64,000 bases of DNA from the NCBI GenBank assembly GCA_964462555.1, contig CAYWXY010000001.1:1577-65576 (forward strand). The letters run 5' to 3'. Source of the DNA: an uncultured Pseudomonadota bacterium. Its GTDB lineage: Bacteria; UBA10199; GCA-002796325; CAYWXY01. The notes beneath the pieces were generated by a model. The model was not told where the DNA came from and did no database searches. It saw only the letters and a program-made list of their open reading frames with translations. Below, in pieces: positions 1,826 to 25,544 of this stretch (position 1 is the stretch's first letter; every line of letters begins with the position of its first letter). Both the position numbers and the translations under genes were made by a program.

Positions 1826-1836
1826 AGGGGAATTTT

Positions 1837-6500: not shown

Positions 6501-9500
6501 GAAACATCGTCATGTGGTGTGGGGGCATGTATCTCGGAAGGAACCATTTATTGTATTGGCGGAGCCTTTGTTGATAACTGTGAGCCCGGCCAACCCAGCG
6601 TCGAACTCTGCGACAATATCGACAATAATTGTAATAATGTTATCGATGATGATTGTATTGAAGGGGATTTCACCTGCGATGGCGTCGACGACGACGAAGA
6701 TGGCGAAACCGATGAAGAGTTTGAGCCCTACCCCACGTCATGTGGTATCGGGGAATGTTTTGCCGAGGGGCTTGCCACCTGCGTGAACGCCTCAATCATC
6801 GATAGTTGCGAGCCGGGAAGTCCGGCGCCGCTTGATACCATTTGCAACAATCTAGATGAAGATTGCGACAGTAATACCGATGAGGATGTTATTCCCGTTG
6901 AGACATATTGTGGAACGGGCGCTTGCGCCGCCGAGGGTCTTGCTATTTGTGTGGGCGGTGAAATGCAAGACAGCTGCACACCCGGGCAGGCGGCAGCGAC
7001 CGACACGTCATGTGACGGTGTGGATAATAATTGCAATGGCGAGACGGACGAAGGATTTATTTCGTATGCCACGTCATGTGGTCAAGGTGCCTGTTTGGCT
7101 GAAGGGCTCGCCACCTGTGTGAATGGCGATGTGGTGGATGATTGCACGCCTGGAAATCCCGCTCTTGATGATGCGACATGCAATAACGTTGATGACAACT
7201 GCAACGGATTTATAGATGAAGATTTTGTTCAATCAATAACGAATTGTGGTGTCGGTGCTTGTGAAAAGAGTGGGACAACATCGTGTATAGATGGCGACGT
7301 CATAGATAGTTGTGTTCCTGGGCAAGCGGCGCAAAATGACACCAGTTGCAACGCTGTCGACGATGACTGTGACGGTGAGGAAGACGAAGATTTTATTTCA
7401 CAGGCAACAGAATGTGGCACAGGCGCCTGCTCTTCCACGGGGCAGACAACGTGTGTGGCGGGCGAGATCGTTAATGATTGTGTTCCAGGTGACCCCGCAG
7501 CCAATGATGCGACATGTAATGGCGTCGACGATGACTGTAACAATGAAACGGACGAAGATTATCAAAATGCCGTCATCCAATGTGGCGTTGGCGCCTGTCT
7601 GGCCGACGGTCTGAAATTGTGTGTAAATGGCGAGCTGACAGACGAATGCACGCCCGGCCAGCCGGCACCCACTGATTCAACCTGTGACAATGTGGATAAT
7701 AATTGTAATGGCGAAACTGACGAGGGCTTCGTTTCTTATGCAACTTCTTGTGGTCAAGGCGCCTGTTTGGCTGAGGGGCTGGCCACGTGCGTCGGCGGCC
7801 AGGTCGTTGATAGTTGCACGCCTGGAAACCCCGCTCTTGACGATGCGACCTGTGATAACATCGATGATAATTGTAATGGGTTTGAAGACGAGGATTTTGC
7901 ATCAACCGTAACGAACTGTGGCGTTGGTGCCTGCGAGGCGAGCGGCACAACATCGTGTGTGGATGGAGATGTCATAGATAGTTGTGTTCCTGGGCAGGCG
8001 GCGCAAAACGACACTAGTTGCAACGGTGTCGACGATGACTGCAATGGTGAAACAGATGATGGTTTTGTGGCCCAGGTAACCGAGTGTGGCGTCGGGGCCT
8101 GTGCGGCAGAGGGCGCAACCGCCTGTGTTGACGGAGAGATAACAAATAACTGTACGCCTGGAGACCCGGCAGGAAGTGACGCCAATTGTGATGGTGTTGA
8201 TAATAATTGTAATAATGAAGTTGATGAAGATTATCAAAATGCCGTCATCCAATGTGGCGTTGGCGCCTGTCTGGCCGACGGTCTGAAATTGTGTGTAAAT
8301 GGCGAGCTGACAGACGAATGCACGCCCGGACAGCCGGCACCCACTGATTCAACCTGTGACAATGTGGATAATAATTGCAATGGCGAGGCTGACGAGGGGT
8401 TCGTTTCTTATGTAACCTCTTGTGGCCAGGGTGCTTGTCTGGCCGAGGGATTGGCAACGTGTTTGGCTGGAAACATTATCGATAGTTGTCTCCCGGGGGA
8501 GGCTGCCGCCAACGATTCGACGTGTGATAATGTTGACGACGATTGTGATGGTTTTAAAGATGAAGATTTTATCCAGGTGGTTACCAACTGTGGCGTGGGT
8601 CCCTGTGAAAAAGAGGGAATCACATCATGTGTCGACGGTGAGGTTATGGATAGTTGTCTTCCGGGAACGCCAGCACCGAGTGATGTTAATTGCGATAATA
8701 TTGACGACGATTGCAATGGCGAGGCCGACGATGGCTTTATCCCATATGATATAGAATGTGGCACGGGTGTCTGTTTTGCCGAAGGGCTTGCCCTTTGCGT
8801 TCAGGGCAGCATTGTTAACGATTGTGCCGAGGGTGAACCGACCGGAAACGACAGTGACTGCGATAATACAGATAATAATTGCAATGGATTTGTCGATGAA
8901 AATTTTGTTCCGTTTGGGACAGGGTGTGGTGTAGGTGCCTGTGCGGCCGAGGGTATGGCGACATGCGTGGGAGGAGAAATTCTTAACAGCTGTACACCAG
9001 GAGAAGCGGCCCCAAACGACACAACATGTGATGGTGTGGATGATGACTGCGACAGCGCGGTCGACGAAGATTATCAAAATGTCATTATTCAGTGTGGCGT
9101 CGGCGCCTGTGTTGAAGATGGATTAAAGCTATGCGTCGGTGGAGAATTTGTCGAGAATTGCGTGCCCGGAGACCCAGCTGAAAATGATACAACTTGTGAT
9201 GGTGTCGACGACGATTGTAATGGATTTAATGATGAAGACTTTAATCCGTATGGCACCAATTGTGGTGTTGGTGCTTGTTTCGCCGCAGGAACAATGACGT
9301 GTGTGGGCGGGCAACTTCAGAACGACTGTGAGCCGGGTGCTCCAGCGCTCACCGACGACGAATGTGATGGTATTGATAATAATTGTAACGGTACGACGGA
9401 TGAAGAATACGCACCAGAGATAACGGCCTGCGGCAGCGGAGCGTGTGCCGCTGAAGGAACAACGGAATGCATGGAAGGCGATATCATTGATAATTGCACA

Positions 9501-11387
9501 CCCGGGCTCGGAGCTGACGATGATCTAACCTGCGATGACGTCGACGACGATTGTAACGGTGAAACCGACGATGGCTACATTCCACAAAATACAGAGTGTG
9601 GTGTTGGCGCCTGTATGGCCGAAGGAATTACATCTTGCGTCGGTGGAACAGAGGTCGACGATTGCGCACCTGGAACGCCGGCCGAAAGCGATACCAATTG
9701 TGACGGCGTCGATGACGATTGTAATGGCGTGGCAGATGATGGATTTGTTTCGTATCCAACAAATTGTGGTCAAGGTGCCTGTTTTGCCGAAGGACTCGCG
9801 ACCTGTGTTGGCGGGGCTATCATCGATAGTTGTGAAGAGGGAACTCCGGCCCTTAACGATGTGACGTGCGATAATGTCGACGACGATTGCGATAATGAAA
9901 TCGACGAAGATTATATTGGCAACGCGATTCAATGTGGCGTCGGCGCCTGTATTGCAGACGGCATCACAGCCTGCGTTGGTGGGACAGAGCTCGACGACTG
10001 TACGCCGGGCCAACCCGCTGCAAGCGACACGACCTGTGATAATGTCGATGATGATTGTAACGGTGTGGCGGATGATGGTTTTGTTTCGTATTCGACAAAT
10101 TGTGGTCAAGGTGCCTGTTTTGCCGAAGGGCTTGCAACTTGTATAAATGGGATATTGAGCGACAGCTGCGAAGAAGGGATTCCGGCCCCGAACGATGTGA
10201 CATGCGATAATGACGACGATGATTGCGATAATGAAATCGACGAAGATTATATTGGTAATGCGATTCAGTGTGGTGTCGGCGCTTGTCTAGCAGATGGAAT
10301 CACAACATGCGTCGGTGGGGCAGAGCTCGACGACTGTACGCCGGGTCAACCAGCGCCATCGGATGAAAGTTGTGACAACGTCGATGACGATTGTAATAAC
10401 CAGACCGACGATGGTTTTGTTCCCTACTCCACCGAGTGTGGTGTAGGCGCATGCGTAGCCGAGGGAGAAGCGACCTGTGTGGGCGGAGAAATTCAGAATA
10501 GCTGCATACCGGGAATGCCCGCAATTAATGACGAGACATGCAACAACATCGACGACGACTGTGACGGCGCGACCGATGAAGACTTCGCATCCTATGTTAC
10601 GAGTTGTGGCGTCGGCGCCTGTCAAGCTGAGGGCCTGGCCACATGTGTGGGTGGAGAAGTGATCGACAGTTGCACGCCAGGAGAGGCGGCGGCCAACGAT
10701 GTAACATGCGATAATGTTGACGATGACTGTAATGGCGAAACCGATGAAGACTACGTTCCAACTGGGATGAGTTGCGGTGTTGGATCATGTGTTGAAAGTG
10801 GTCTCATACAGTGTGTGGGCGGCGAATTAATTGAAGAATGTACGCCGGGAACGCCAACCGATGAAATTTGCGATGGACACGATAACGATTGTGATGGAAA
10901 TACCGACGAGATCTGCATTGACAATATTCAAACGGGCTCCCTTCTCCTTGTTGGCTACACGACGCCGGCGAAGACGGAGATCATCAATAAAGAGGTTTTT
11001 GCAACAATCATTACCGGAGAGGCCCCCCTTCCCGATTCCTTTACGGTGGCGATTGAACATTGTATCGAAGAAGTCTGCACGACGACCGACCCGGTCGCCC
11101 TGGCTAACGGTATTGAACTCTGTGATTTTTCAGTGGGGCTTGGAAATGAGGCGTGCGAAGAAAATCAACCGGCCCCCATCAAGGAGTCAAATATTCTAGA
11201 TCTGACACTTGCGCAACTGATTCCCGGAATGAATCTTTGGTCCCTCTCTCAAGATGAAACATTCCGCGGCAACGTCACAACGTTGTCATACGACCTCGGC
11301 GGTTATAATATTGGTCTCGAGATTCCGATCCCCAACGCAGATGCGGCCTCATGCTACTATCTCTTTAACACCTACGCCTGCGATTAA
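3582..11387 (+). CDS. Giant (2601 aa) acidic cysteine-rich tandem-repeat protein. About 50 copies of a 45-aa six-Cys module ending in an LDLa/TSP3-like Ca-binding loop CDGxDDDCDGxTDEDF. No N-terminal signal peptide. Unique 190-aa C-terminal domain. Likely Ca-binding surface/secreted adhesin-like protein
   Basis: Single uninterrupted ORF. Repeat pattern C-x4-C-x7-C-x8-C-x11-C-x6-C with motifs CG(T/V)G(A/G)C, CxPGxPAxxD and CDG(I/V)DDDCDGETDEDF. Alternating module subtypes (ATECGTGAC.. / IQCGVGGC..). Near-identical DNA blocks recur at 672-bp offsets. First in-frame start is ATG 3582, with a stop at 3534. Confidence 0.85.
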   Translation: MIWGCTPYRPPPADYPELPDVSLHDVIHDTLVIKDTKGGDSLFDSFWDIKEKYDAEIDTFREDADGFVDAETSDTSDTFDAFDGEEMCEDLCFDISDSNDGDAEVCEFVGEIDDTCDDIDDDCDGETDEEFPIELTECGVGGCLSTGILACVGGDIVDTCVEKPAEIDDSFCDGIDGDCDGWTDEDFESETTSCGIGACFSEGLTLCIGGEVQDSCEPALPAPDDPGCDGIDDDCDDLVDEDFIPYPTSCGAGACAADGEATCEGGFIIDSCEPLATAPDDSECNGIDDDCDGETDEDFVSMVTACGIGGCASVGLTLCVGGSVQDSCKPGKPAPDDATCDAIDDDCDTKIDEDVHPIETECGTGACLGLGLATCLDGIMVDSCEEGVPALDDSECNGIDDDCDGETDEEFVSSATECGLGGCVSTGSTSCINGEVQNSCTPEMPTPDDAKCDGVDSDCDEEVDEDFMPYGIQCGVGGCIADGLAICLNGEISNECTPGAALEDDTSCDGIDGDCDSETDEDFVSMATMCGTGGCLAEGITLCIGGGIQDNCVPGEAAPNDASCNGVDDDCDGKTDEDYVQQITKCGVGGCFEEGATTCLGGVILDSCVAGTPALDDSECNGIDDDCDGETDEDFTSQATECGTGACLSSGETSCINGVVQNSCTPLSPAFDDATCDGIDDDCDNDLDEDFTPYSIQCGIGGCVADGLAICLNGEISNECTPGAALEDDTSCDGIDGDCDSETDEDFISMATICGTGGCLAEGVTLCIGGGVQDNCVPGEAAPNDASCNGVDDDCSGETDEDFISETTECGTGACWAQGLTICLNGMLIENCEELLPAIYDSECNGVDDDCNGETDEDFVSQATECGTGACVDSGETSCVNGEVQNNCVPLQPALDDATCNGVDDDCNGESDEDFIPYGIQCGVGICQANGLAICLNGEVVNECTPGLPAPDDTSCDATDNDCDGFSDEDYIPETSSCGVGACISEGTIYCIGGAFVDNCEPGQPSVELCDNIDNNCNNVIDDDCIEGDFTCDGVDDDEDGETDEEFEPYPTSCGIGECFAEGLATCVNASIIDSCEPGSPAPLDTICNNLDEDCDSNTDEDVIPVETYCGTGACAAEGLAICVGGEMQDSCTPGQAAATDTSCDGVDNNCNGETDEGFISYATSCGQGACLAEGLATCVNGDVVDDCTPGNPALDDATCNNVDDNCNGFIDEDFVQSITNCGVGACEKSGTTSCIDGDVIDSCVPGQAAQNDTSCNAVDDDCDGEEDEDFISQATECGTGACSSTGQTTCVAGEIVNDCVPGDPAANDATCNGVDDDCNNETDEDYQNAVIQCGVGACLADGLKLCVNGELTDECTPGQPAPTDSTCDNVDNNCNGETDEGFVSYATSCGQGACLAEGLATCVGGQVVDSCTPGNPALDDATCDNIDDNCNGFEDEDFASTVTNCGVGACEASGTTSCVDGDVIDSCVPGQAAQNDTSCNGVDDDCNGETDDGFVAQVTECGVGACAAEGATACVDGEITNNCTPGDPAGSDANCDGVDNNCNNEVDEDYQNAVIQCGVGACLADGLKLCVNGELTDECTPGQPAPTDSTCDNVDNNCNGEADEGFVSYVTSCGQGACLAEGLATCLAGNIIDSCLPGEAAANDSTCDNVDDDCDGFKDEDFIQVVTNCGVGPCEKEGITSCVDGEVMDSCLPGTPAPSDVNCDNIDDDCNGEADDGFIPYDIECGTGVCFAEGLALCVQGSIVNDCAEGEPTGNDSDCDNTDNNCNGFVDENFVPFGTGCGVGACAAEGMATCVGGEILNSCTPGEAAPNDTTCDGVDDDCDSAVDEDYQNVIIQCGVGACVEDGLKLCVGGEFVENCVPGDPAENDTTCDGVDDDCNGFNDEDFNPYGTNCGVGACFAAGTMTCVGGQLQNDCEPGAPALTDDECDGIDNNCNGTTDEEYAPEITACGSGACAAEGTTECMEGDIIDNCTPGLGADDDLTCDDVDDDCNGETDDGYIPQNTECGVGACMAEGITSCVGGTEVDDCAPGTPAESDTNCDGVDDDCNGVADDGFVSYPTNCGQGACFAEGLATCVGGAIIDSCEEGTPALNDVTCDNVDDDCDNEIDEDYIGNAIQCGVGACIADGITACVGGTELDDCTPGQPAASDTTCDNVDDDCNGVADDGFVSYSTNCGQGACFAEGLATCINGILSDSCEEGIPAPNDVTCDNDDDDCDNEIDEDYIGNAIQCGVGACLADGITTCVGGAELDDCTPGQPAPSDESCDNVDDDCNNQTDDGFVPYSTECGVGACVAEGEATCVGGEIQNSCIPGMPAINDETCNNIDDDCDGATDEDFASYVTSCGVGACQAEGLATCVGGEVIDSCTPGEAAANDVTCDNVDDDCNGETDEDYVPTGMSCGVGSCVESGLIQCVGGELIEECTPGTPTDEICDGHDNDCDGNTDEICIDNIQTGSLLLVGYTTPAKTEIINKEVFATIITGEAPLPDSFTVAIEHCIEEVCTTTDPVALANGIELCDFSVGLGNEACEENQPAPIKESNILDLTLAQLIPGMNLWSLSQDETFRGNVTTLSYDLGGYNIGLEIPIPNADAASCYYLFNTYACD

Positions 11388-12871
11388 TCGTTACTGACGA
11401 GACCCTGAATGAAATAGGGATTAAACGTTTGATCGATCGATGAAAACTCTTGCCAGATCAGCGCAAAGCCATTCTCCTGCGATACAAACGAATCTCCAGC
11501 GACGGTTCCCTGAATAAGTAGGGACTCGTTGGAAGAGAGCGCCCTTCCCGACTGATCGATTTTTGTCAGGTAGGTATTATGAAAGGTGATGCCGGTGTAG
11601 CCCGAAGCGACAGCGTAGGCACTATAGGTTGTAAAATGGGTATCGTTCCAGGTAATCACGGCGCCATCACGATTGGTCGCAATTTCTTTTCTTTCGACAA
11701 GAGCGGCACCAGCGGGACTATATCTTGCAAAGTATAAAGAGCCGATATTAGAATCATCACGTACAACCCAGGTAACGCCCATAGAGGCGCCATCCCAAAC
11801 GAGACTCGGAGTGGTGGAATAGACAGAAGTGTCGGAAATGAGGAGGGCAGAGGTGTCGGAGGAGATATCGGGCTTAAGGTAGATATTCATGAGGTCGCCG
11901 TCTCCAACTTCATTCCAGGTTGCGGCGTAGCTGGAAGACGTCGTGATCAAGATAAGGCGATGTGATCGTGATTCACTGTTGGATATATTCTTTGCGGCGG
12001 TCTTTTCGCTACCGTCGGCGTTGAGAGTCATAAAGTAGATATCGGACCACCAATTGGAACCGCTGTAGCCACACCACGCAAGACCATATTCATCATCTCC
12101 TGAAACAATGGAAATGCAGTCAGTGTTGGTGTGGACAGAGGGTATTTGACGCGCGGGAACGGTCACCGTTCCACTGGCGTCCATTCGCGTAAAATAGATA
12201 ATATCATTGTCGTCCTCTTCCAGACCGTAAACAATTGCGAAATCGGTGCCGTTCCAAGCAATGTCATTAATTGAAATAGTGGGTGTCCCCGATACGAATG
12301 GCATCAATTCGGAATGACTGTTTGTCGACGGATCGAGCGTTACAAAGTTATTATGTGCTACGAGGCCATAGATCGTTCCGCTATAAGCCAAGGCAAAAGG
12401 ATTCGTTTCAACATTTGCGGCAAGCGAGGTCATGTCGATTTTGGATCGAACAACAAATGAAGATGTGTCTGGGTCCGTTGGGTCCAGATATGTGACGCGA
12501 GCTGTTGTCTCAACTTCGGAACCGTCCACCGATAGCGAAGTGGTCAAAATTTTATCATCGTCATCGACAGTTCCGTTGAATACGATTTCTGTGCCATCAG
12601 AAAGGGTTGGGGATATCGAAAAGGCGCTGTCCGTGATTAAAACAGAAACGGTGGCACTTCCTGACACGGTCCCATCGATACTCGATTTGGAAAATGTGCC
12701 ACTTCCGTTGGCATCGGTTTCAAGGCTGTAGTTCGTTAGGGCCGCAGTTGTTAATGTTAGTTCCATATTGCCGAGCGGTTCAGGGTTTCCAGTCTCTGTT
12801 CCCTTTCCTGGCGTGCAGGCGTAGAGAGACACCAATACAAAAAAAAGAAGAACTTTTAAACATTGCCTCAT
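11384..12871 (-). CDS. Putative lipoprotein (495 aa) with Thr/Ser-rich N-terminal region and repeated W-x-G/aromatic blocks (beta-propeller-like); function unknown
   Basis: Signal peptide MRQCLKVLLFFVLVSLYAC with Cys lipobox-like site; recurring motifs IAWNGTDF, LAWCGYSG, ATWNEVGDGD, VTWVVRDD, ITWNDTHF, LIWQEF; 4-bp ATGA overlap with upstream gene. Confidence 0.6.
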   Translation of the reverse strand: MRQCLKVLLFFVLVSLYACTPGKGTETGNPEPLGNMELTLTTAALTNYSLETDANGSGTFSKSSIDGTVSGSATVSVLITDSAFSISPTLSDGTEIVFNGTVDDDDKILTTSLSVDGSEVETTARVTYLDPTDPDTSSFVVRSKIDMTSLAANVETNPFALAYSGTIYGLVAHNNFVTLDPSTNSHSELMPFVSGTPTISINDIAWNGTDFAIVYGLEEDDNDIIYFTRMDASGTVTVPARQIPSVHTNTDCISIVSGDDEYGLAWCGYSGSNWWSDIYFMTLNADGSEKTAAKNISNSESRSHRLILITTSSSYAATWNEVGDGDLMNIYLKPDISSDTSALLISDTSVYSTTPSLVWDGASMGVTWVVRDDSNIGSLYFARYSPAGAALVERKEIATNRDGAVITWNDTHFTTYSAYAVASGYTGITFHNTYLTKIDQSGRALSSNESLLIQGTVAGDSFVSQENGFALIWQEFSSIDQTFNPYFIQGLVSND

Positions 12872-13734
12872 GAATTGTCCTCACTCTTTGTTAATTTGAT
12901 AAAGCCGAGATTGATATTAACCACCTCGGTCTTGTTGTTGTTCCCCTCCTCCAGCTGCCGATGCAGTTTTCGACGAAACTCCTGAAGGGCGTCCTTCAGT
13001 TCGGCCATCTTCTCTGTTGAGATGGCCATTGTGATTGCAGAAAACTCGCGGTCGTCGACCGGATCCATTTTGACGGCTTCTTTGGATAGTTCCATCAGCT
13101 GTTCGTGAAATTCGGTGATCGAAAGGCTGCGGACCACATTTGGGGTCGCGAGCATCTCATCCGTTTTTTTAAGTCGACCAGCCTCATCGCGAGAGATCAG
13201 GCCGAGCCCTTCAAGTTCCTTCATGGCATGTTTGGCCTTTGGGACAGAAATAGGCGGCTTTAGCTTGTTTGCGATCCAATGATAATCCTCACGAAAATTA
13301 TCCAAACGCACAACCTCCATCAGTGCCAAATAGTACCAATTCGAATAAATCTTATAGTACTTTGACTGAAGCGTCGCCGGACTCTTCTTTGGTGTAAAGT
13401 CGACAAGTTGTTGGTAGTAGAGATTTTTTTCATCGTATGTGCCGGCTTGGCAAAAATTGACGAGCGCATGAAAAAAACGCGATTCTTTTTTGGAAAGACG
13501 AAAGCCTTTGCAGATCTTTTCGGCACTATCTGACGTCAGATTTCGCTTGCCGTCCATGATGAGTTTAAGATGGGCAGGCGATTTCATTCCGGCACGCCGA
13601 TTGAAGTTTCGATATGAGAATGTGGGGAGTGTCTCCTTGAGGAAGGAGATTCGATCCTTGAGGAATTCGCGATAGTCAACGAACTGATAAATCTCCTTGA
13701 TCTTGATTTCGTCATTGTTTATTGAATCGTCCAT
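12868..13734 (-). CDS. TIGR02147-like family protein (uncharacterized; N-terminal HTH-like region), translationally coupled to the downstream lipoprotein
   Basis: N-terminal YQFVDYREFLKDRISFLKETLPTFSYRNFNRRAGMKSPAHLKLIMDGKRNLTSDSAEKICKGFRLSKKESRFFHALVNF resembles the DYRxFLxD...FSYRxFAxKAG..SP..L..VI.GKRNL signature recalled for the TIGR02147 family (from memory, not searched). Confidence 0.55.
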   Translation of the reverse strand: MDDSINNDEIKIKEIYQFVDYREFLKDRISFLKETLPTFSYRNFNRRAGMKSPAHLKLIMDGKRNLTSDSAEKICKGFRLSKKESRFFHALVNFCQAGTYDEKNLYYQQLVDFTPKKSPATLQSKYYKIYSNWYYLALMEVVRLDNFREDYHWIANKLKPPISVPKAKHAMKELEGLGLISRDEAGRLKKTDEMLATPNVVRSLSITEFHEQLMELSKEAVKMDPVDDREFSAITMAISTEKMAELKDALQEFRRKLHRQLEEGNNNKTEVVNINLGFIKLTKSEDNS

Positions 13735-13867
13735 CTAAAAACTCCGAAATTTTAGGAAGCACAGGTAAACAACCAACAACACTTATATTGTATAACATAT
13801 TGATATAATTGTCATAATAAATATCGCCAAAAGAGAAAGACATAATATAGTCTATAAATACAATGCC

Positions 13868-14785
13868 TTAGTAAACATGCAGAATGCAGCTCGAGTCCTC
13901 TGCGTTGATACCAATAATGTACACCTCTTCGTCTATTGTCTGGATCGTGCTGTTGAGAGAAAGGTCGTCAAAATGGCACGATTCATAAGATCCAGCGCTT
14001 GCTGGAAGAACCTCTAGCGTAGATACGAAATCGGGGCAGATCAAGGATGTAACCTCAACAATATTGGACAGGCACTCCAAAATTTCTTTTGCGTGAAGTG
14101 CTTCTAATTCATCATCTGATAAATCTTCTGTGTCTTCTATTAATATATGTGGCTTATTAGGTGGTTGGGAAGAATTGTTAATATCGATATTAGGCAGTGA
14201 ATTTAAAAAACCTGGAATTGGATAACTTGGGAGGGGGACTTCTGCATTATTTTCACCCTCAAGAACCACGTCAGGATTGAGACTCTTTATGATGCAATCA
14301 ACTGAATCAAAATGATATGCTACCTCTGAATCTTCAAGCAGGAGGATGTCCCCTGTATTGCTATTGCAGTAATAGGCCTCACCCTTTTCATCTAAGACAC
14401 CAGCGATATTTTCTATAACGTCCTGCAAATGATCAAAGTCGTTCGCAGTCCAGCCTGTTGATGCCTGGCCACAAGCAAACAAAAAATTATAAAGAACTAA
14501 TGTTTCACATTGTGAATCATCAGCGTCTTCATCGCCATCATTCGCACTTTCTCCGCTTTCCCCATCACCATCATCGTCATCACGATCATCCCCCTTGTCG
14601 CCGTCATCATCAAGTTCGGTATCACCTGGGATCTCGACGGCATCATTCTCCCCATCGTCATCGAAGAAGGAGGCAAAATCGTTGGGCCGAACAGTTCCAT
14701 TATCTCCACATCCGGATAGAATAAGTAGCGCCGGCAGGAGAAGAATTGCGGCAAGAACGACAATTTGCTGAAGAAATTTTCTCAT
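13868..14785 (-). CDS. Acidic lipoprotein with poly-Asp/Glu low-complexity region (function unknown)
   Basis: MRKFLQQIVVLAAILLLPALLILSGC lipobox; DDDGENDAVEIPGDTELDDDGDKGDDRDDDDGDGESGESANDGDEDADD tract. Confidence 0.6.
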   Translation of the reverse strand: MRKFLQQIVVLAAILLLPALLILSGCGDNGTVRPNDFASFFDDDGENDAVEIPGDTELDDDGDKGDDRDDDDGDGESGESANDGDEDADDSQCETLVLYNFLFACGQASTGWTANDFDHLQDVIENIAGVLDEKGEAYYCNSNTGDILLLEDSEVAYHFDSVDCIIKSLNPDVVLEGENNAEVPLPSYPIPGFLNSLPNIDINNSSQPPNKPHILIEDTEDLSDDELEALHAKEILECLSNIVEVTSLICPDFVSTLEVLPASAGSYESCHFDDLSLNSTIQTIDEEVYIIGINAEDSSCILHVY

Positions 14786-15003
14786 ACGAACCTCCATATG
14801 GCTTGATTACTTTGTTTACAGAATTTACAAAAGAGCATTTAAAATACAGTGTATTTTATATAAGCAATTTATATGCCAAGATGCGGCCAATAATTAGCTA
14901 ATAATAACGAGCAGGTAGGGTTTGTGGGCTTTTAAGGATGGGGGGTGGTGACCTCGCAGCTGTATACTCAAAACCCCAAAAAACGAGTAAAATGTGAGCG
15001 GGC

Positions 15004-16731
15004 TTACCTAAACTCGGCCTTATAAATATGATTAGTGGAACCATCCGACTGTTGCCAGACAATGACCGTCTCACCATGATCATTGATAGCAATCTGGGGA
15101 TAGTAGGCATCATGATTGTCGGGGCTGATATTGTCGAGAAGATCTTCCGGAACAAATAAAACACCCTCTCGAAATTCGCCCTTAAAGACCTGAGAGTTGG
15201 TATCATCAGACTGTGTCCATACAACAACCGTGTCGCCGTCGACATTCATTGCCACCTGCATACCCTGAGAGGTTCCGTCCTCACGACCGTAATAGCTGAC
15301 CGGTTGCCAGTTGCCATCGCTATTTGCATATAGACCAACACGATAGGCGGCTCCGTCATGCTGCTGACAGACAATGACAGCCCCTCCATCATCATTCATA
15401 GCAATCTGTGCATACCGCGCTGTCAACCCCTCCGTGCTGAGGGCGTCTGAGGTGTCTGTAGGATGTACCCATACCCCCTCACGATACTCGCTCTTCAAAA
15501 TACGAGGAGTAAACGCGTCATCCGATTGATGCCATGCGATAATCGCATCGCCGTTTTCATTCATTGCAACTGCAGGATTGTTGGCGCTAAGACCCTCTGG
15601 GCTGATGTAGTCTGAGCTGTCCGAAGGATGTGTCCAAGCTCCCTCGCGGTATTCGCTCTTGAATATGCGAGATTTACCCTCGGCAAGTTGTGACCAGACA
15701 ATGATGGTTGCCCCGTCATTATCGATCGCAACTTGAGGGTGTGTGGCATTCAAGCTCCCGGGGTCAATATAGTCTGAGCTGCCCGAGGGATGCGTCCATA
15801 CCCCGCCACGATACTCGCTCATATAAATACGGAGATAGTCCCCCCTGTACTGGAACCAGGCAATAACGGTTTCGCCATTGTTGTTCATGGCTACCTGGGG
15901 AAGATAAACGTCATTGTCATCGGGACTTATATTATCTGAGAGGTTCGTCGGATGTGTCCAGGTTCCATCACGATATTCGCTCTTAAAGGTTTGGAGGCTT
16001 TCTCCATCGCTTTGTTTCCAAACGATAATAGCCTCCCCTTGATCATTCATAGCAACCTGTGGTCTCTGGGCATTTTCACCGTCTGGACTGATGTTGTCTG
16101 TGAGGTTCGTCGGATGCGTCCAGGCTCCATCACGATATTCGCTCTTGTAGATCTGGGAGGCATTGCCGTCCGATCGTGACCAGACAATAATGACGTTGCC
16201 GCTATTATCAATGGCAACTTGAGGGGCGAGTTCGTCTCCCCCTCCACCCTCTGGGTCGATGTGATCATTTTCTAGGCTCGTTGGGTGTGTCCAACGGTTT
16301 GAGCAAACGATATCGATGCTACGAACATCATCGCCATTGATTGTTCCGCTTCCGTTTGCGATAGTGCAGTTTTGTAAAAGGGGCTCTGTATCTAAGGTAA
16401 TAGAATAATTGCTGCCATCTTCAAAGGTTTCTTCGAACTGAAAATCACCATTGGCAGACAGGGCAAGATTCTCGCTGTTATTGATCTTAAGAACCAGCTC
16501 TTCGCTTGCAAGCCCTGTTAGCGAACCGCCAACATAATAGTAAGTGGCATCCGTCGTCGTCTCAGACGCTCCCCCCTCCTCCTCGGCTGGTGTCTCAGTC
16601 TCGGTCGGAGCATTTGTTTCGACACTTTCCTTTTCGGCGGGCTGGCTTGAATCTGTTGGAAGCCCACCGCAGGCCGAGAGGGTTGATAGGAAAAAAATAA
16701 TAAATAGAGCATCGAAGCGAAAAAGTTTCAT
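15004..16731 (-). CDS. Lipoprotein with about 9-10 tandem 47-aa repeats (WTHPTNLSDNISPDG...PQVAMN..GEAIIVWxQSDG..xIYKSEYRDG); probable beta-propeller; function unknown
   Basis: MKLFRFDALFIIFFLSTLSACGG lipobox; highly regular internal repeats visible in translation. Confidence 0.65.
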   Translation of the reverse strand: MKLFRFDALFIIFFLSTLSACGGLPTDSSQPAEKESVETNAPTETETPAEEEGGASETTTDATYYYVGGSLTGLASEELVLKINNSENLALSANGDFQFEETFEDGSNYSITLDTEPLLQNCTIANGSGTINGDDVRSIDIVCSNRWTHPTSLENDHIDPEGGGGDELAPQVAIDNSGNVIIVWSRSDGNASQIYKSEYRDGAWTHPTNLTDNISPDGENAQRPQVAMNDQGEAIIVWKQSDGESLQTFKSEYRDGTWTHPTNLSDNISPDDNDVYLPQVAMNNNGETVIAWFQYRGDYLRIYMSEYRGGVWTHPSGSSDYIDPGSLNATHPQVAIDNDGATIIVWSQLAEGKSRIFKSEYREGAWTHPSDSSDYISPEGLSANNPAVAMNENGDAIIAWHQSDDAFTPRILKSEYREGVWVHPTDTSDALSTEGLTARYAQIAMNDDGGAVIVCQQHDGAAYRVGLYANSDGNWQPVSYYGREDGTSQGMQVAMNVDGDTVVVWTQSDDTNSQVFKGEFREGVLFVPEDLLDNISPDNHDAYYPQIAINDHGETVIVWQQSDGSTNHIYKAEFR

Positions 16732-16833
16732 AATACCTCCTTGTGAACGATGATGTATTATCGCAAAAAAGGGAGGTGTATGTTGTGTGCTATTTAGTGG
16801 TTTGCGAAGAATCCGTATACTCGGAGTAAACAG

Positions 16834-17862
16834 TTAGAATAAATCTTTTTGGGTGGAAATGGCGCTTTTGGGAGCGCCGCCTTCATTTTCGGCCTCGGTT
16901 CGAGCAAGATAGACCATAGCGGCACCGATCGCGGAATCGAACCAGTCGTCACTCGCATTATTGTAAGCAACGGTAAGCGTAATCATGTCGCCACTTCCAA
17001 CGGCGACGCCGGCCGGATCTTGAAAGGGTGGAAGTGATGTAATCCGATGATCATCATCGATCAATGCTGTCCCCTTCCAAAAGGGGTCACCCTCATCACC
17101 CTTAGTAAGAGAAACCGAAACGCCATAATTTTGTAGAAGCCCATGGGCCTGAATCACAGAACCTGTCTCCGGTGAATAGGCAACCTCTACCTTTTCAACA
17201 AATTGTCCCGGTGCGATATTAATCGGCTCGTGATAACAAGGGTCGAGATCGATCATCATTGGCAAAACATCGGTCATCATCTTTGTATTGTCCATCGGTT
17301 CGCCAACGAGAATGACCTTGATATAGACACCAAAAAAATCCTGCTTCAACGGGTTCTGAAGAACAACGCGGGCCTCGAGCGGATCGCTGGGAACGACGGC
17401 ATAACCATGTCCCTCGGGAAGTTCAATCTTTTCCATATTGGAACTGGTGGCCGCAAAGGGATTTCCGGTTTGGCTGGTTGTACAAAAACTATTTTCCTCA
17501 CCGTGATTCACGAGAAGGATTTGATGAACAAGCTCGTTTGGGAGAGCAGCACCTTCAGCATCTTCAATGATCGGTTCAATCGATGTTACCCAGAGAGGTT
17601 CCTCCAGGTTGAAGCGCATCGTTGCCGGTTTCAAAATCATGGCGTTGGCAGACGTCATTGACGAAATATCATAAGGCCCCATATGGTACGTATAGACAAC
17701 CTTTCCGGTCTCATCGAGATAGTCGGAGATCGAGAGTTCTGCCTTTGACGGTTCGGCCTTCAGCTGCATGCTGGGGCCGCCTGGAACGTCGTTACAGGCG
17801 GAAAGGAGTGCCACCAAAGATATTGTTGCAAATGTGATAAGCTTTCGCATAAGTTTGGCCAT
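16834..17862 (-). CDS. Hypothetical lipoprotein (true start likely MAKLMRKLITFATISLVALLSAC at 17862)
   Basis: LSAC lipobox after hydrophobic stretch; the listed ORF's N-terminal extension lacks features. Confidence 0.55.
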   Translation of the reverse strand: MAKLMRKLITFATISLVALLSACNDVPGGPSMQLKAEPSKAELSISDYLDETGKVVYTYHMGPYDISSMTSANAMILKPATMRFNLEEPLWVTSIEPIIEDAEGAALPNELVHQILLVNHGEENSFCTTSQTGNPFAATSSNMEKIELPEGHGYAVVPSDPLEARVVLQNPLKQDFFGVYIKVILVGEPMDNTKMMTDVLPMMIDLDPCYHEPINIAPGQFVEKVEVAYSPETGSVIQAHGLLQNYGVSVSLTKGDEGDPFWKGTALIDDDHRITSLPPFQDPAGVAVGSGDMITLTVAYNNASDDWFDSAIGAAMVYLARTEAENEGGAPKSAISTQKDLF

Positions 17863-17901: not shown

Positions 17902-19311
17902 TTGGACAAAATGACGCAGGGTGACATGAAAATGGAAGAGACAATTACAGCTATAGCGACGCCTCCAGGGCGGGGGGCGATCGGGATTATTCGGATCAGC
18001 GGTTCCCAGGCAAAGGAGATTTTGGGGAAGGTGTGGAAAAGTGGCCCCCATCCTGTGGAAAACTTCGTAACACACCGATTATACTTAGGAAATATTGTTG
18101 ATTTGTCCACAGGGGAAACAGTCGATCAGGTAATGGCCGTGCTGATGCAGGGACCACACTCCTATACGGCCGAAGACGTAGTTGAAATCAACTGTCACGG
18201 CGGACCTCAAACGATAAAAGCCATATTAAATCAAATAGTTAAATCGGGTGCGCGACTGGCTGAACCGGGGGAGTTTACGAAACGGGCCTTTTTAAATGGC
18301 AAGCTCGACCTGGCCCAGGCCGAGGCCGTGGCTCAGCTGATCGATGCCCGGTCAAGCCGAGCGGCCAAGTTGGCAGAGGAACAGCTCGAGGGAAAACTCT
18401 CAAAAAAAATTCGGTCTCTTCAGTCCAGTCTCAAAGAGTTGACCGCATACGTCGAGGCAACGATCGATTTTCCCGAAGAGGACGAGCGATTTATTGAAGA
18501 GGGAGAGATCGGAAAACAACTTGGAAATCTACAAACAACAATTACGCACCTGATCGAAAGTTACGATGAGGGACGAATTCTGCGCGAGGGCGTAAAGACC
18601 GTTATCGCGGGGCCACCCAACGCCGGAAAATCAAGTCTCTTAAATGCGATTCTCGGGACCGAACGGGCGATCGTTCATCACATTCCAGGAACAACGCGCG
18701 ACACGATCGAAGAGGGTGTTTTGATTCGCGGTATTCCGTTTCAAATGATTGATACGGCCGGGATTCGGGAGGCCGAGGAGGAAGTAGAAGAGATCGGCGT
18801 GGGTAGAAGCCGTCAGGCGCTGACACAGGCCGAGGTTGTTATTGTTGTTCTCGATGGTCACGATTACCGTGCGACCGACGATCGGTTTGTTGAAGAATTG
18901 AAAGATGTTAAACATGTTGTTGTCGTAATTAACAAGATAGACCTTAAGGAAAAAATTGACGCAGGCGAAATCAGCAATCGTTTCGTCGGTCGAAGGATTG
19001 TAAAGGTGTCGGCCAAAAATGGCGATGGCATTGAACAACTTTTGGAGACCGTGGCCGACGAGATCGTTAGCGACCATGCCGCAAACGAGGAAGAAGATAT
19101 TGTAATTACGTCGGAGCGGCATTTTGAGTTATTAGGTAGATCTGCCGAGGCCCTAGAATCTGCAAACGAGGAGTTATCAAAGAACCAATCGCCGGAATTT
19201 ATTGCCATTCACCTGAAAGAGGCCCTCGGCCAGCTGGGCCGAATCGTCGGCGAGGTCACAACGGACGACCTTTTGAACGAAATCTTCAGTAAATTTTGTA
19301 TTGGGAAATAA
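17902..19311 (+). CDS. mnmE: tRNA modification GTPase MnmE/TrmE (start may be an internal Met near 17926)
   Basis: TITAIATPPGRGAIGIIRISG N-terminal motif; G-domain GPPNAGKSSLLNAIL, DTAGIRE; C-terminal CIGK motif. Confidence 0.92.
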   Translation: MDKMTQGDMKMEETITAIATPPGRGAIGIIRISGSQAKEILGKVWKSGPHPVENFVTHRLYLGNIVDLSTGETVDQVMAVLMQGPHSYTAEDVVEINCHGGPQTIKAILNQIVKSGARLAEPGEFTKRAFLNGKLDLAQAEAVAQLIDARSSRAAKLAEEQLEGKLSKKIRSLQSSLKELTAYVEATIDFPEEDERFIEEGEIGKQLGNLQTTITHLIESYDEGRILREGVKTVIAGPPNAGKSSLLNAILGTERAIVHHIPGTTRDTIEEGVLIRGIPFQMIDTAGIREAEEEVEEIGVGRSRQALTQAEVVIVVLDGHDYRATDDRFVEELKDVKHVVVVINKIDLKEKIDAGEISNRFVGRRIVKVSAKNGDGIEQLLETVADEIVSDHAANEEEDIVITSERHFELLGRSAEALESANEELSKNQSPEFIAIHLKEALGQLGRIVGEVTTDDLLNEIFSKFCIGK

Positions 19312-19408
19312 GAAGAGAGATATTTCACATTTAGCTTTTCATTTATTGTCATGGCGATAGGGGTAGTGCGGGCATACTAAATCGAATAATCACAAAAAGG
19401 AGGTCTCT

Positions 19409-20551
19409 ATGAGAAAGGTTACATTAACAGTGGCATGTGCCATCTTGGCCATATCGCTCGCTGCCTGTGGCGGTTCATCCGGTGGCGGCGGTGGCGGCGG
19501 TGGTGATACCGGATCAGCGCTAAAGGGTTTAGCCACATGTACAGCACAAACAGGTGAGGCTGTCATTTGTGGTACGGTCTATGCGGCCGATGGAACAACG
19601 CCTGTTATTGGGGCAACGATTACACAAGGAACAGCTTCTGGTGATGAAGTTGCTCTGACAGGACTTTATAAGGGAGTTGCAAGTGATACTGCCTGTCAAA
19701 CAGATACAAGCGGTGCGTTTGCCTGTTCGGGAATCACAACCGCAGGAACGTTTACGTTTTACATTGCCAGCGACATCGGAAGTAGCTCTTTTTCTCAGGC
19801 CGCGACAATAGGCGAAACGGCAGATGTGCCAGCGTCTTCGACAACCATCAGTGGAAGCAGCGGAACAGCCCAATGGTTGGTTGTCCCCGGAGCTTATGAT
19901 GGGATTCAAAAACTTCTGGCCGACATGAAGGGGTGCACGTTGACGGGTGACGAATCAAATCCCCCGGCCCTAACAAACAGTGATGAATGTGAGGCACTCG
20001 GCCTACTTGTTTTAACAGCTGTTGAAATTGATACATATTTTTCCGATGTTGCTGAGCTCACGGCATACGATTCGATTTTTGTCAATTGCGCCACAGACCT
20101 GAGTTCATATTCAACCGTTCTTGAGGAATACGTTGCGCAGGGTGGTAATATGTATTTTTCAGATTTGGCTGATGATGGTTTGACGACAGCCTTTCCAGGA
20201 AATGTCACCTTTGGAACAGCCGCGACAAGTTCCGGAACAGTCGCCGCGGCCGACATTGATGACACCGGTCTTGCGACCTATTTGGGCGTTTCAACCATGG
20301 AGATCGTTTTTGATCTCGGTTCCTGGCAAGACATTACATCGGTTGAGAGCAACGTGACGACCTACATCAGTGGTGACACCTCATCACTGGGTGGAATGGC
20401 AGATGCTCCGATTACAGTTGGCTGGAAAGAAGATACAGGCGGATGCCTCTTCTATACATCCTACCATGTCGAGGCAAGTACGGCAGAAGATGCCAATCAG
20501 GAAAAGGCCCTGAAATATCTCGTCCTCAATATTAGTCAAATTTGTCAGTAA
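19409..20551 (+). CDS. Hypothetical lipoprotein with poly-Gly linker
   Basis: MRKVTLTVACAILAISLAACGGSSGGGGGGGGD; strong RBS AAGGAGG 7 nt upstream; followed by a terminator. Confidence 0.65.
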   Translation: MRKVTLTVACAILAISLAACGGSSGGGGGGGGDTGSALKGLATCTAQTGEAVICGTVYAADGTTPVIGATITQGTASGDEVALTGLYKGVASDTACQTDTSGAFACSGITTAGTFTFYIASDIGSSSFSQAATIGETADVPASSTTISGSSGTAQWLVVPGAYDGIQKLLADMKGCTLTGDESNPPALTNSDECEALGLLVLTAVEIDTYFSDVAELTAYDSIFVNCATDLSSYSTVLEEYVAQGGNMYFSDLADDGLTTAFPGNVTFGTAATSSGTVAAADIDDTGLATYLGVSTMEIVFDLGSWQDITSVESNVTTYISGDTSSLGGMADAPITVGWKEDTGGCLFYTSYHVEASTAEDANQEKALKYLVLNISQICQ

Positions 20552-20571
20552 GTTTTTAAGGTCAATACAAA

Positions 20572-20603
20572 GGCCCGGGGATTCAAACCCCGGGCCTTTT
20601 TTT
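20572..20603. terminator. Rho-independent terminator shared by convergent genes 19409-20551(+) and 20602-21435(-)
   Basis: GGCCCGGGG-ATTCAAA-CCCCGGGCC perfect 9-bp stem followed by TTTTTTT. Confidence 0.85.
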
Positions 20604-21435
20604 ATTCATTCAAGAAAGTGTTGACCATATCCTGAAGTCCGGAAAACCAAGGTCCCATTATGGTTAGTTCTCCTCCGCCTGATGAGTAAGGATTAAGAAT
20701 GATGCCGTCTGGTTCATCTTGGTTGCATAGGAATATAATGTTGGCACTAGGGTCTGAAAAATCCCAGGGCGCAGTGGAATATTGATAAGTGTTGTTCTCA
20801 TTACAATCTGATCCCTCGGAAACAATATTTTCACCAAGTAATGTGTATACAATAAGCTTTAATCGGCGTAAGGCCCAATTGGATACTGCGTACTGAAACC
20901 AATTTTGATAAAGATCCCAAAGCTCTTTTGGGGAAACAACACCAGAATAGAGTGTTGATGACGATTGCCAATAAACTTTGCAAAGAGGAACGTCTTGATC
21001 GCTCATGGCGTAAAGGCGACGGCTACCAGGCCTTTTTTTGATAATCTCTTCACCGTTCGTGGAGGCTATATATTGGATGATGACGCAATTTGGCATATCG
21101 TTAGTGGTAGAAAAATTGCTGTGTGAAATAAGCTGAATGGCGGTTGTGTTAGAAAAGGTCTCCGTCGATTCCAAATAATTTGGATTAGTCAAAAAATGTG
21201 CAATTCGATACGATGTTCCTTCATAAAATGAAGAGAGATTGTCAGGCGTCAAAATGATCTCGGCATAATCGATATCTTGATACGTAACCATCTTCTGGTA
21301 AAGACTATAATGAAAGCCGGGGGATGATTGGTCTTGATTCTGAAAGGCTTCTGCCGCGCCCATTAATATGGGCAGCAATGAAATTACAACGGTGACAACA
21401 ATAGTAACGACAACTGCATAGAACATTCCTTTCAT
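20602..21435 (-). CDS. Hypothetical secreted/membrane-anchored protein
   Basis: N-terminal hydrophobic helix MKGMFYAVVVTIVVTVVISLLPILMGAA; no recognizable domain. Confidence 0.5.
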   Translation of the reverse strand: MKGMFYAVVVTIVVTVVISLLPILMGAAEAFQNQDQSSPGFHYSLYQKMVTYQDIDYAEIILTPDNLSSFYEGTSYRIAHFLTNPNYLESTETFSNTTAIQLISHSNFSTTNDMPNCVIIQYIASTNGEEIIKKRPGSRRLYAMSDQDVPLCKVYWQSSSTLYSGVVSPKELWDLYQNWFQYAVSNWALRRLKLIVYTLLGENIVSEGSDCNENNTYQYSTAPWDFSDPSANIIFLCNQDEPDGIILNPYSSGGGELTIMGPWFSGLQDMVNTFLNE

Positions 21436-21847
21436 ATGACCTCCCAAAAGAAATGTCCCTCTAACAATGTAACAGCAGCAAACATGTGTTGATTAATGGC
21501 ACTCTAAAAAAATTTCGATCAAGACGCTGTTGCGTCCTCGGTATCGATTGGTATCGGTGGCGTCGGAACAATGATCGCAATGGCAGAAACAACAAATAGA
21601 GTGTAGGTCCTTCTTTTCATTTCTCCCTCGATTAATGATTGATGTGGCCCCAATGTCGTGTAATGCAAATAGAATGCCAAGGGGTCGAAATGTAAAATAA
21701 TAAATAAAATTAGAGGGATACGCCAGATTTTACAGGCGTCGGATAACTATCATAATGATAGATTCAGGGCCTTCTCTCAAAATGGGAGAGAAAATGGAGC
21801 CCCCAAAAATTGACAATGGGTAGGGCCTCACGTATAGAGCAGGCGCG

Positions 21848-23704: not shown

Positions 23705-23739
23705 AGTAGACATCGGGGTCAGACCCCTTTGTCTACTTT
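23703..23739. repeat. Nested hairpin element AAAGTAGACA-TC-GGGGTCAGACCCC-TTT-GTCTACTTT overlapping the mnmG stop; its 27-nt core recurs at 48785-48811
   Basis: Exact 27-nt match ATCGGGGTCAGACCCCTTTGTCTACTT at 23712-23738 and 48785-48811; palindromic. Confidence 0.6.
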
Positions 23740-23759
23740 CAAGAACGACTGGAAATATT

Positions 23760-24896: not shown

Positions 24897-24908
24897 GCCG
24901 AAGGGAGT

Positions 24909-25544
24909 ATGATCATGAAAGGTCTTCCAGAATTTGATGCCCATATGGACGAGGCGCAGGTGATTAATTTTGAACAATACCTGGGGCTCCTTCTGAAGTG
25001 GAATCGGGCCTACAATTTAACGGCGTTAAATGATCCAATCGAGGTCTATGAAAAACACTTTTCCGATTCGGCCATGCCCCTTCAGTTTGTAAGAGAGAAC
25101 GCGAAATTGATTGATATTGGCACGGGCGCTGGCTTTCCCGGCGTGCCAATCAAGATACTCCGAAGCGATATTCAGGTTACCCTTGTTGACTCTAAGTCGA
25201 AAAAGGTCAACTTCTGTGAACATGTTGTCCGTGAACTGAGCCTTAAGGGAATCAAGGTGATCCAGGGCCGCGCCGAAGAGGCAGCGATGCAAAAACGGTT
25301 GGGTAAATTCGACGTGGTCGTTTCGCGCGCCACGCTCAAGCTCCCCTCGTTCATCAAGGTGGGAGAAAAATATGTTAAGAAGAGCGGACATTTGATTGCA
25401 ATGCTCGGTGTCAATTGGTCGGATGATCTGGATAAGGCGATGAGTCAAATCAAGAAATCAAACCTTAAGTTGATCAAGGTTCACGAATACACACTACCCA
25501 TCAGTCAAAATCACCGCGCCTTATTAATTTTCGAGAAATCCTAG
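24909..25544 (+). CDS. rsmG: 16S rRNA (guanine527-N7)-methyltransferase RsmG/GidB
   Basis: LLLKWNRAYNLTAL...HFSDS...IDIGTGAGFPGVPIKI SAM-binding motif characteristic of RsmG. Confidence 0.9.
   Translation: MIMKGLPEFDAHMDEAQVINFEQYLGLLLKWNRAYNLTALNDPIEVYEKHFSDSAMPLQFVRENAKLIDIGTGAGFPGVPIKILRSDIQVTLVDSKSKKVNFCEHVVRELSLKGIKVIQGRAEEAAMQKRLGKFDVVVSRATLKLPSFIKVGEKYVKKSGHLIAMLGVNWSDDLDKAMSQIKKSNLKLIKVHEYTLPISQNHRALLIFEKS

Follow-up and report, generated by a model that had tools for sequence, protein, structure and literature searches.

A putative autoregulated regulator/exported-protein cassette with a conserved N-terminal tag in an uncultured Pseudomonadota bacterium and its relatives

An uncultured Pseudomonadota bacterium (GTDB lineage Bacteria; UBA10199; GCA-002796325; CAYWXY01) carries, on contig CAYWXY010000001.1 of GenBank assembly GCA_964462555.1, two overlapping minus-strand genes that encode a TIGR02147/DUF4423 protein and a predicted lipoprotein. 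We analysed a stretch of 64,000 nucleotides around them (contig positions 1,577 to 65,576, forward strand; hereafter the window, whose own numbering is used throughout). We refer to a TIGR02147/DUF4423 gene or its product as T and to the exported-protein gene adjoining it as the partner; in the window these are g2 and g1, the two genes nearest to a giant repeat-protein gene in a block of five minus-strand open reading frames (ORFs), g1-g5, that ends before mnmE. Here, we find that g2-g1 is one copy of a two-gene cassette that recurs across phyla and is the sole conserved unit of the block, describe a peptide tag at the mature N-terminus of its exported product, and weigh explanations for the linkage between the two genes.

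The pair comprises the following features:

11384-12871, minus strand: g1, the partner lipoprotein gene (495 aa; lipobox LYAC, Cys19)
12868-13734, minus strand: g2, the TIGR02147/DUF4423 gene T (288 aa)
12868-12871, minus strand: ATGA overlap of T stop and partner start
12815-12871, minus strand: predicted lipoprotein signal peptide of g1, MRQCLKVLLFFVLVSLYA followed by Cys19 (lipobox match LFFVLVSLYAC)
12782-12802, minus strand: tether tag of g1, G24-T-E-T-G-N-P30, five residues past the lipidated Cys (C19-TPGK-GTETGNP)
11387-12454, minus strand: predicted seven-bladed beta-propeller domain of g1 (residues ~140-495; repeats of ~52 aa)
13537-13614, minus strand: predicted XRE-type helix-turn-helix (HTH) of T (residues ~41-66, FNRRAGMKSPAHLKLIMDGKRNL), the most conserved stretch of the family
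13165-13284, minus strand: predicted winged-helix part of DUF4423 in T (residues ~151-190; helices 151-157 and 164-176, beta hairpin 180-190)

A preliminary description of this locus, made from its sequence, had proposed that the two genes overlap by ATGA, and direct reading agrees: the strand runs ...AAT TCA TGA, with the partner ATG at 12871-12869 and the T stop sharing its bases, an arrangement indicating translational coupling of T and partner. The partner fits a regular expression in the style of PROSITE PS51257 (K/R in the n-region, a hydrophobic core and [LVI][ASTVI][GAS]C at positions 15-35).

The same description had called the g1 product beta-propeller-like. Its AlphaFold2 model (mean predicted local distance difference test, pLDDT, 80; above 85 across most of residues 140-495) is indeed a predicted seven-bladed propeller, in which repeated four-stranded blades close into a ring, while residues 19-47, tag included, are predicted to be disordered (tag segment pLDDT below 50). 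The underlying ~52-aa repeat spans residues ~195-495 (11387-12290) with the consensus PSLvWTGSEYGvAW.D.RDG..EIYFAR and has no Pfam model. It is present in 888 cluster representatives, often in many copies within proteins of 1,000-3,800 aa that also carry MopE motifs. A word-indexed search returned no close homologue of g1 other than itself, and an exhaustive search gave repeat-level relatives only.

A cross-phylum cassette with a tagged partner

To place the pair among its relatives, we scanned one genome per species with the peptide KL[VI][MI]DGKRN, which yielded 218 relatives of T, and retrieved 80 loci (835 kb). By their record titles, these derive from Myxococcota (23 loci), Bdellovibrionota (16), Fibrobacterota (12), Desulfobacterota (6), unclassified 'Deltaproteobacteria' or UBA10199-like lineages (20) and three oddly labelled metagenome-assembled genomes (MAGs). 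The last, L037, L058 and L079, bear the labels Sulfitobacter, Senegalimassilia and Nitrospira; their cassettes are laid out almost identically to those of Halobacteriovorax or Fibrobacter, and the contigs are probably mis-binned.

In nearly every one of the 80 loci, T is followed by a same-strand ORF with a signal peptide. The idea that TIGR02147 genes might always precede lipoprotein genes was thus close to the mark: in about 70 of 79 loci the partner has a signal peptide and a common N-terminal motif. Of 66 cassettes, 45 have a 4-nt overlap between T stop and partner start and 4 more an overlap of 1 nt, and the window copy, with its exported-protein gene directly downstream and 4-nt overlap, is an ordinary member of the family. 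A strict five-residue form of the motif lies within 480 nt after T in 55 of the 78 usable loci, where the background rate of this DNA would give 2.8, and degenerate forms (GTIIGNP, GVEVTNP, GTNTGNP and GTHTGNP, for example) occur in some 16 further loci.

Three instances from outside the 80-locus genome set extend this picture. The closest homologue of the window T (48% identity; L086) has the same 4-nt overlap and a partner that begins LASCG-KGTETGTPHP. A metagenome contig holds two tandem T paralogues with a tagged lipoprotein after each, and of two pairs in a Bdellovibrionales MAG one is canonical and the other, with IGNGGG, degenerate. Cassettes occur more generally as paralogues, in tandem or several per genome.

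All-against-all BLASTP of 2,260 ORFs from the 80 loci revealed no other conserved neighbour family; clustering yielded only T, antisense shadow ORFs and the PF09826 Beta_propel family, the last in about 10 loci.

The mature N-termini of the partners share G-(T/I/V)-(E/D)-(V/T/I)-G-N-P directly after the signal peptide (consensus over 54 loci G-G-T-E-V-G-N-P), and the G of the G-N pair mostly lies 6-13 residues past the Cys. The window g1 carries this tag in the form that characterizes the cassette (G-x-[ED]-x-G-N-P, about 6-13 residues past the Cys or cleavage site). In Halobacteriovorax-like loci the partner instead has a signal peptide of the signal peptidase I (SPase-I) type, followed by GGVGVGN(S/G). 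As the tag follows SPase-I signal peptides too, it is positioned relative to the mature N-terminus and not to the lipid.

We gauged the specificity of the tag with a position weight matrix (PWM) in a six-frame scan of the 835 kb; the matrix was derived from the partners themselves, so that the scan speaks to specificity and not to sensitivity. At a threshold of 16 bits there were 68 matches, 62 of them directly downstream of T. Four more (L028, L038, L041 and L068) are divergent lipoproteins just upstream of a T that has no downstream partner, one (L015) is the second gene downstream of T, and one (L061) has no signal peptide upstream and looks spurious. In the window, the g1 tag scores 28.1 bits and is the single match in six frames. 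The four divergent lipoproteins all belong to Polyangiaceae loci and carry GGTDVGNG, lacking the Pro; in these loci the match of our query to T also stops at residue 257.

Every synonymous codon is used at each conserved tag position, in genomes of 34-72% GC. Because synonymous codons vary so freely, selection on the tag acts at the peptide level, and the tag is a partner-specific peptide under purifying selection. The same codon usage rules out an explanation of the tag at the level of DNA or RNA; the 64-kb window also has no Rfam match. NCBIfam and Pfam scans of nine partners and four isolated N-termini, with E values up to 10, revealed no curated family that covers the tag. Its residues are not all fixed: some copies have another residue in place of Asn (the closest homologue GTETGTP, another copy GTEVVSP), and others have Ser or Gly in place of Pro.

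Behind the tag, partners range from 77 to 671 aa and have unrelated bodies, among them CBM_4_9 domains in Fibrobacter, PF09826 beta-propellers, right-handed beta-helices and small Cys-rich domains, with many bodies lacking any match. The partner body is a freely exchangeable payload behind a constant tag. The two proteins of the Fibrobacter intestinalis pair (WP_078775339.1 / WP_078775296.1), for instance, are listed in RefSeq as 'TIGR02147 family protein' and as 'carbohydrate binding domain-containing protein'.

The regulator T and its candidate operator

The assignment of g2 to TIGR02147, originally made from its N-terminal signature, is secure. A hidden Markov model search matched the NCBIfam TIGR02147 profile over positions 2-271 of 272 (226.9 bits, E 3e-67, cut-off 50), and the Pfam DUF4423 profile PF14394 likewise matched well above its cut-off (142.4 bits, cut-off 30). 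No other TIGR02147-type gene occurs in the window, and the protein collection contains 29 relatives of g2, with identities of 24-48%. The signature DYRxFL...FSYRxF..AG..SP..LK.V.DGKRNL is present, as are R22, L25, S40 and R64, which are invariant in the family alignment A1, and the near-invariant K57-L66 block.

The AlphaFold2 model of T (pLDDT 90, predicted template modelling score 0.79) is all-helical apart from one beta hairpin. Structure comparison of the model suggests that the N-terminal part, a five-helix XRE-type HTH fold, resembles C.Esp1396I, C.AhdI, HigA, DdrO and P22 c2, and that the middle part resembles the winged helices of MarR, ArsR and DnaD-N. An earlier guess that T is HTH-like is thereby supported and, in the predicted structure, enlarged by a winged helix. 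In the model, the long C-terminal helices 199-223 and 240-263 pair into a hairpin that probably mediates dimerisation. The searches returned no credible solved structure related to T by sequence and no full-length fold match. T has a pI of 8.9 (family median 9.2), with basic HTH parts and an acidic C-terminal part, and it has no signal peptide or hydrophobic segment. From sequence and model, T is a predicted cytoplasmic DNA-binding regulator. Conserved residues outside the HTH are W133, E140, W153, H210, R229 and T235.

We searched the 250 nt upstream of the T genes by unbiased enumeration of 5-mer dyads, using shuffled sequence as expectation. GTATTC-N4-GAATAC was found in 10 loci and GTTTTC-N4-GAAAAC in 6 loci, with about 0.05 loci expected for each. 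The exact 12-base palindrome GT(A/T)TTC-N4-GAA(A/T)AC has 18 copies in the 835 kb against about 0.05 expected, and 14 of the 18 precede the T match by 66-190 nt; if up to two mismatches are allowed, 24 loci have a copy in this position. The palindrome centre typically falls 61-100 nt before the start codon, often with extra half-sites close by.

Some copies lie elsewhere in the locus. More distant palindromes precede another lipoprotein gene that heads the same operon in L017 (17-38), L043 (237-258) and L049 (4951-4972), and in L064 the palindrome (7413-7434) precedes a Beta_propel lipoprotein gene located after the partner. T regulons may extend beyond the tagged partner, because the palindrome also precedes these other lipoprotein genes beside the cassette. 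Several palindrome-preceded lipoproteins beside the cassette are PF09826 Beta_propel proteins.

The half-site sequence follows the start of the predicted recognition helix. A helix beginning SSG[FT] occurs with half-site GTTTTC in 8 of 8 loci, and one beginning [SA]PN[FY] with GTATTC in 15 of 15, the pattern that direct readout of the operator by T would predict. Palindrome and covariation in the relatives offer indirect support for sequence-specific DNA binding by T. In the window, the recognition helix of T begins SPAH, and the region upstream of the pair contains:

13787-13815, minus strand: candidate sigma-70-like promoter for the T-partner pair (ATGACA-17-TACAAT; 10/12 in a consensus scan; a pattern match only)
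13779-13812, no strand assigned: inverted repeat, a possible operator of the window copy (10-nt arms, 90% complementary, 14-nt spacer), overlapping the promoter candidate
13791-13803, minus strand: TCAATATGTTATA block, conserved upstream of T in L086, the closest homologue (MAFFT alignment)
13765-13773: GTTGTTTAC block, also shared with the L086 upstream region in the same alignment

The inverted repeat is unlike the family palindrome.

We consider it fairly probable that g2-g1 is one copy of a widespread, self-contained and autoregulated regulator/exported-protein cassette: a T-controlled operon with a tagged partner and an exchangeable payload. In this mechanism T would be a transcription factor acting on the bicistronic operon to which it belongs, and in many relatives it would do so by binding the palindromic operator GT(A/T)TTC-N4-GAA(A/T)AC, 60-100 nt ahead of the start codon. 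The partner would be translated through ATGA coupling and exported, here as a lipoprotein with a beta-propeller body, and a flexible N-terminal tether would display the G-T-E-x-G-N-P tag directly after the signal-peptide cleavage site.

Several points weigh against this model. DNA binding and autoregulation by T enter it as inferred steps, as does a functional tie between the exported protein's tag and T. The palindrome is found upstream of about 30% of cassettes and is not a feature of all members; it is absent upstream of the window copy, where the best PWM score in 13600-14050 is 0.3. The covariation of operator and helix is partly confounded by phylogeny, the SSGF group being one clade. 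The lipoprotein assignments in the block, of which there are four, are regular-expression matches. Moreover, a pure transcription factor is not usually coupled in translation to an abundant structural protein; such coupling hints at a stoichiometric relationship. A plain regulator-target model also leaves unexplained why the tag has turned up only near T genes.

Alternative explanations and the surrounding block

The strict linkage of tag and regulator could be accounted for if the two were halves of a recognition pair, which we regard as possible, if rather unlikely. Cytoplasmic T would then be a transcription factor that also binds the tagged N-terminus of the partner precursor, either escorting it as a dedicated targeting chaperone or coupling cassette transcription to export status as a feedback sensor, with free and precursor-bound T differing in DNA binding. 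By analogy, T might work like the chaperone-regulators of type III secretion or the signal-peptide-binding redox enzyme maturation protein (REMP) chaperones that serve Tat substrates. Tag and T are each found almost only where the other is, and the prevalent 4-nt overlap suggests co-production. As a short linear motif, the tag lies in a predicted disordered tether beside the signal peptide and is selected as a peptide in front of a payload that is free to vary, and the conserved non-HTH residues of T (W133 to T235, listed above) could form a binding site for it. However, the tag lies past the signal-peptide cleavage site, in a segment that is normally exported fast, and in the four Polyangiaceae loci the genes are divergent and uncoupled. 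A tag that is near-identical in all paralogues would, in addition, leave no room for paralogue-specific recognition.

A tentative alternative places the reading of the tag wholly in the envelope, where an unlinked sorting, surface-exposure or processing factor would act on it, or where self-cleavage at Asn-Pro would free the protein from its lipid anchor; T would merely be a local transcription factor, inherited with the 5' end of the partner gene as cassettes duplicate. The tag does lie where lipoprotein sorting signals usually do, 2-9 residues past the lipidated Cys, and its placement after SPase-I-type signal peptides in Halobacteriovorax-like loci, counted from the mature N-terminus, suits a reader outside the cytoplasm. 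The frequency of cassette paralogues, in tandem or several per genome, would fit the proposed duplications. Autocleavage at Asn-Pro is known elsewhere, in the NPTH motif of FlhB/YscU and in reovirus mu1. Against this, a general tag should also turn up far from T, yet about 750 kb of flanking DNA contained none. The replacement of Asn in some copies and of Pro in others makes an obligatory self-cleavage at Asn-Pro unlikely. We think this explanation, too, is doubtful.

The preliminary description had gone further, treating the five minus-strand genes and the giant MopE-repeat gene as one coherent cell-surface module. Upstream of the pair on the minus strand lie:

13868-14797, minus strand: g3, neighbouring lipoprotein gene (309 aa, or 305 aa from the start at 14785; LSGC; acidic low-complexity tether)
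15004-16731, minus strand: g4, neighbouring lipoprotein gene (575 aa; LSAC, Cys21; PDIAV-like and BNR-like repeats scoring below the family cut-off)
16834-17862, minus strand: g5, neighbouring lipoprotein gene (342 aa; LSAC, Cys23)

Its claim that these genes encode predicted lipoproteins stands, g1, g3, g4 and g5 all fitting the lipobox expression, and thus four of five genes on one strand are of this kind. Across the window, a lipobox is present in 6 of 46 ORFs of at least 150 aa, four of them in the block and a fifth at 19409-20551; the enrichment (4-5 of the 6 lie here) is real but only modestly above chance. Also in favour of a module, the relatives L017 and L049 have another lipoprotein gene ahead of T in the same operon, behind the operator, and relatives of the partner's repeat sit inside giant MopE-motif proteins.

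We nevertheless drop the five-gene module, because clustering of the 80 loci found no conserved neighbour family beyond T and partner. The other lipoproteins, g3-g5, lack the tag in the PWM scan, intergenic gaps of 102-218 nt lie ahead of T, and a promoter-like site of the pair's own follows a gap of 133 nt. Nor is g1 significantly similar to the 575-aa g4 product or to the giant protein. A module of this extent is improbable in our view, and g3-g5 and the giant gene are better viewed as co-residents of a variable surface-protein island. NCBIfam and Pfam scans gave no family match for g3 or g5. The g4 product has about 8 repeats of the type PQVA.N..G.aiivW.qsdg....i.kSEYRdG.WthP and scores 64.7 bits against NF053835 ('PDIAV motif-containing lipoprotein'), below the 90-bit cut-off for membership.

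The giant gene (3582-11387) encodes a Cys/Asp-rich repeat protein of the MopE type (PF11617; 2601 aa). Together with the block it occupies 3582-17862, between yidC (1783-3531) and mnmE, the latter followed by mnmG and rsmG (17902-25544). Since yidC and mnmE are usually neighbours close to the origin of replication, the region looks like a variable surface-protein island of about 14.3 kb, made up of the giant gene and the five minus-strand genes and inserted into a conserved backbone.

Several observations concern the island and its borders. The giant gene and g1 are convergent, and their stop codons overlap (TTAA, 11384-11387); no terminator-like site was found between them. In two European Nucleotide Archive metagenome contigs with otherwise identical flanks (L001, 4635-12608), the giant protein has 2657 aa; the difference of 168 nt equals one 56-aa repeat and suggests repeat copy-number variation or assembly collapse. 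Directly after mnmE, the plus-strand lipoprotein gene at 19409-20551 has a poly-glycine tether, CGGSSGGGGGGGGD, and no family match. In metagenome assembly L003 (206-1591) mnmE is split into two genes (313 + 144 aa), likely by a frameshift or assembly error, and the sister assembly L004 has an unbroken copy (461 aa).

The weakest proposal, an RRNPP-like pair in which a peptide from the partner N-terminus would be released, re-imported and bound by T, borrows some plausibility from the order of domains in T (an N-terminal XRE HTH, then a helical domain), from its location beside a secreted protein with a conserved short peptide and from the presence of ComR among weak Foldseek matches, but we judge it very improbable: the ComR matches are of low probability (0.2), the T model has no C-terminal tetratricopeptide repeat domain for peptide binding, the adjacent gene is no small pro-peptide gene (partners have 77-671 aa, many with folded domains), the peptide, being the same in all paralogues, would confer no specificity, and the bacteria are diderm. 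We also rejected a defence-system or toxin-antitoxin (HigA-type) reading: PADLOC gave no match, and the partner has a lipoprotein signal peptide and a predicted propeller body, unlike a cytoplasmic toxin.

Relation to known systems and implications

The window T is a full-length, above-threshold member of TIGR02147 ('Fsuc_second')/DUF4423, whose members are annotated only as 'TIGR02147 family protein'. In the literature open to our searches we found one incidental entry, the DUF4423 protein Bd3700 in a proteomics table, where it is upregulated during intraperiplasmic growth (PMC12546842), and nothing on the pairing, the tag or the operator. NCBIfam and Pfam matches on the partners say nothing of an obligatory pairing or a tag; curators may already be aware of the adjacency of T and partner. 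What appears new is a putatively autoregulated XRE-type operon with an unprecedented N-terminal tag, strictly linked to it, on the co-expressed exported protein.

In structure, the modelled N-terminal domain of T can be superposed on the controller (C) proteins C.Esp1396I and C.AhdI of restriction-modification systems and on small XRE autoregulators such as HigA. T also shares with C genes its position ahead of a co-expressed gene, often with an overlap, and in many cassettes a palindromic box precedes the regulator gene. Unlike C proteins and HigA, T is 3-4 times larger, with the extra winged helix and helical hairpin of the model, and its partner is an exported, tagged protein and not a nuclease or toxin.

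Cytoplasmic proteins encoded beside a specific exported protein that bears an N-terminal recognition element include IpgC/MxiE of type III secretion, FlgM/sigma-28 and the REMP chaperones TorD, DmsD and NapD. The layout of the cassette is similar to that of these secretion-coupled chaperone-regulators, and a mechanism analogous to theirs would explain the strict linkage of tag and T. By contrast, they have no sequence or fold relationship to T, and cassette partners carry Sec/lipoprotein signal peptides in place of the Tat or type III secretion signals of those systems.

The tag can also be compared with lipoprotein sorting signals, such as Lol-avoidance residues and the lipoprotein export signal of Bacteroidota, which are likewise short motifs in the tether just past the lipidated Cys. 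It differs from them in sequence and in its additional occurrence after SPase-I signal peptides, and it is confined to genes adjoining one regulator family, whereas sorting signals are spread over the lipoproteome.

TIGR02147/DUF4423 is a multi-copy family without an assigned function in Fibrobacter, Bdellovibrio-like predators, Myxococcota and related uncultured lineages. The cassette gives it a functional frame: a coupled exported protein with an exchangeable payload, a tag found nowhere else in the sampled DNA, and, ahead of many copies, a palindrome that covaries with the recognition helix. Should T prove to read the tag, gene expression and protein export would be linked in a new way. The cassette would then be the counterpart, in the Sec/lipoprotein pathway, of the regulators coupled to type III secretion, and predatory, gliding and fibre-degrading bacteria would have many paralogous copies of it in each genome. 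Tag and operator also provide simple signatures for annotating hundreds of 'hypothetical lipoproteins' and for choosing cultured models, such as the Fibrobacter intestinalis pair.

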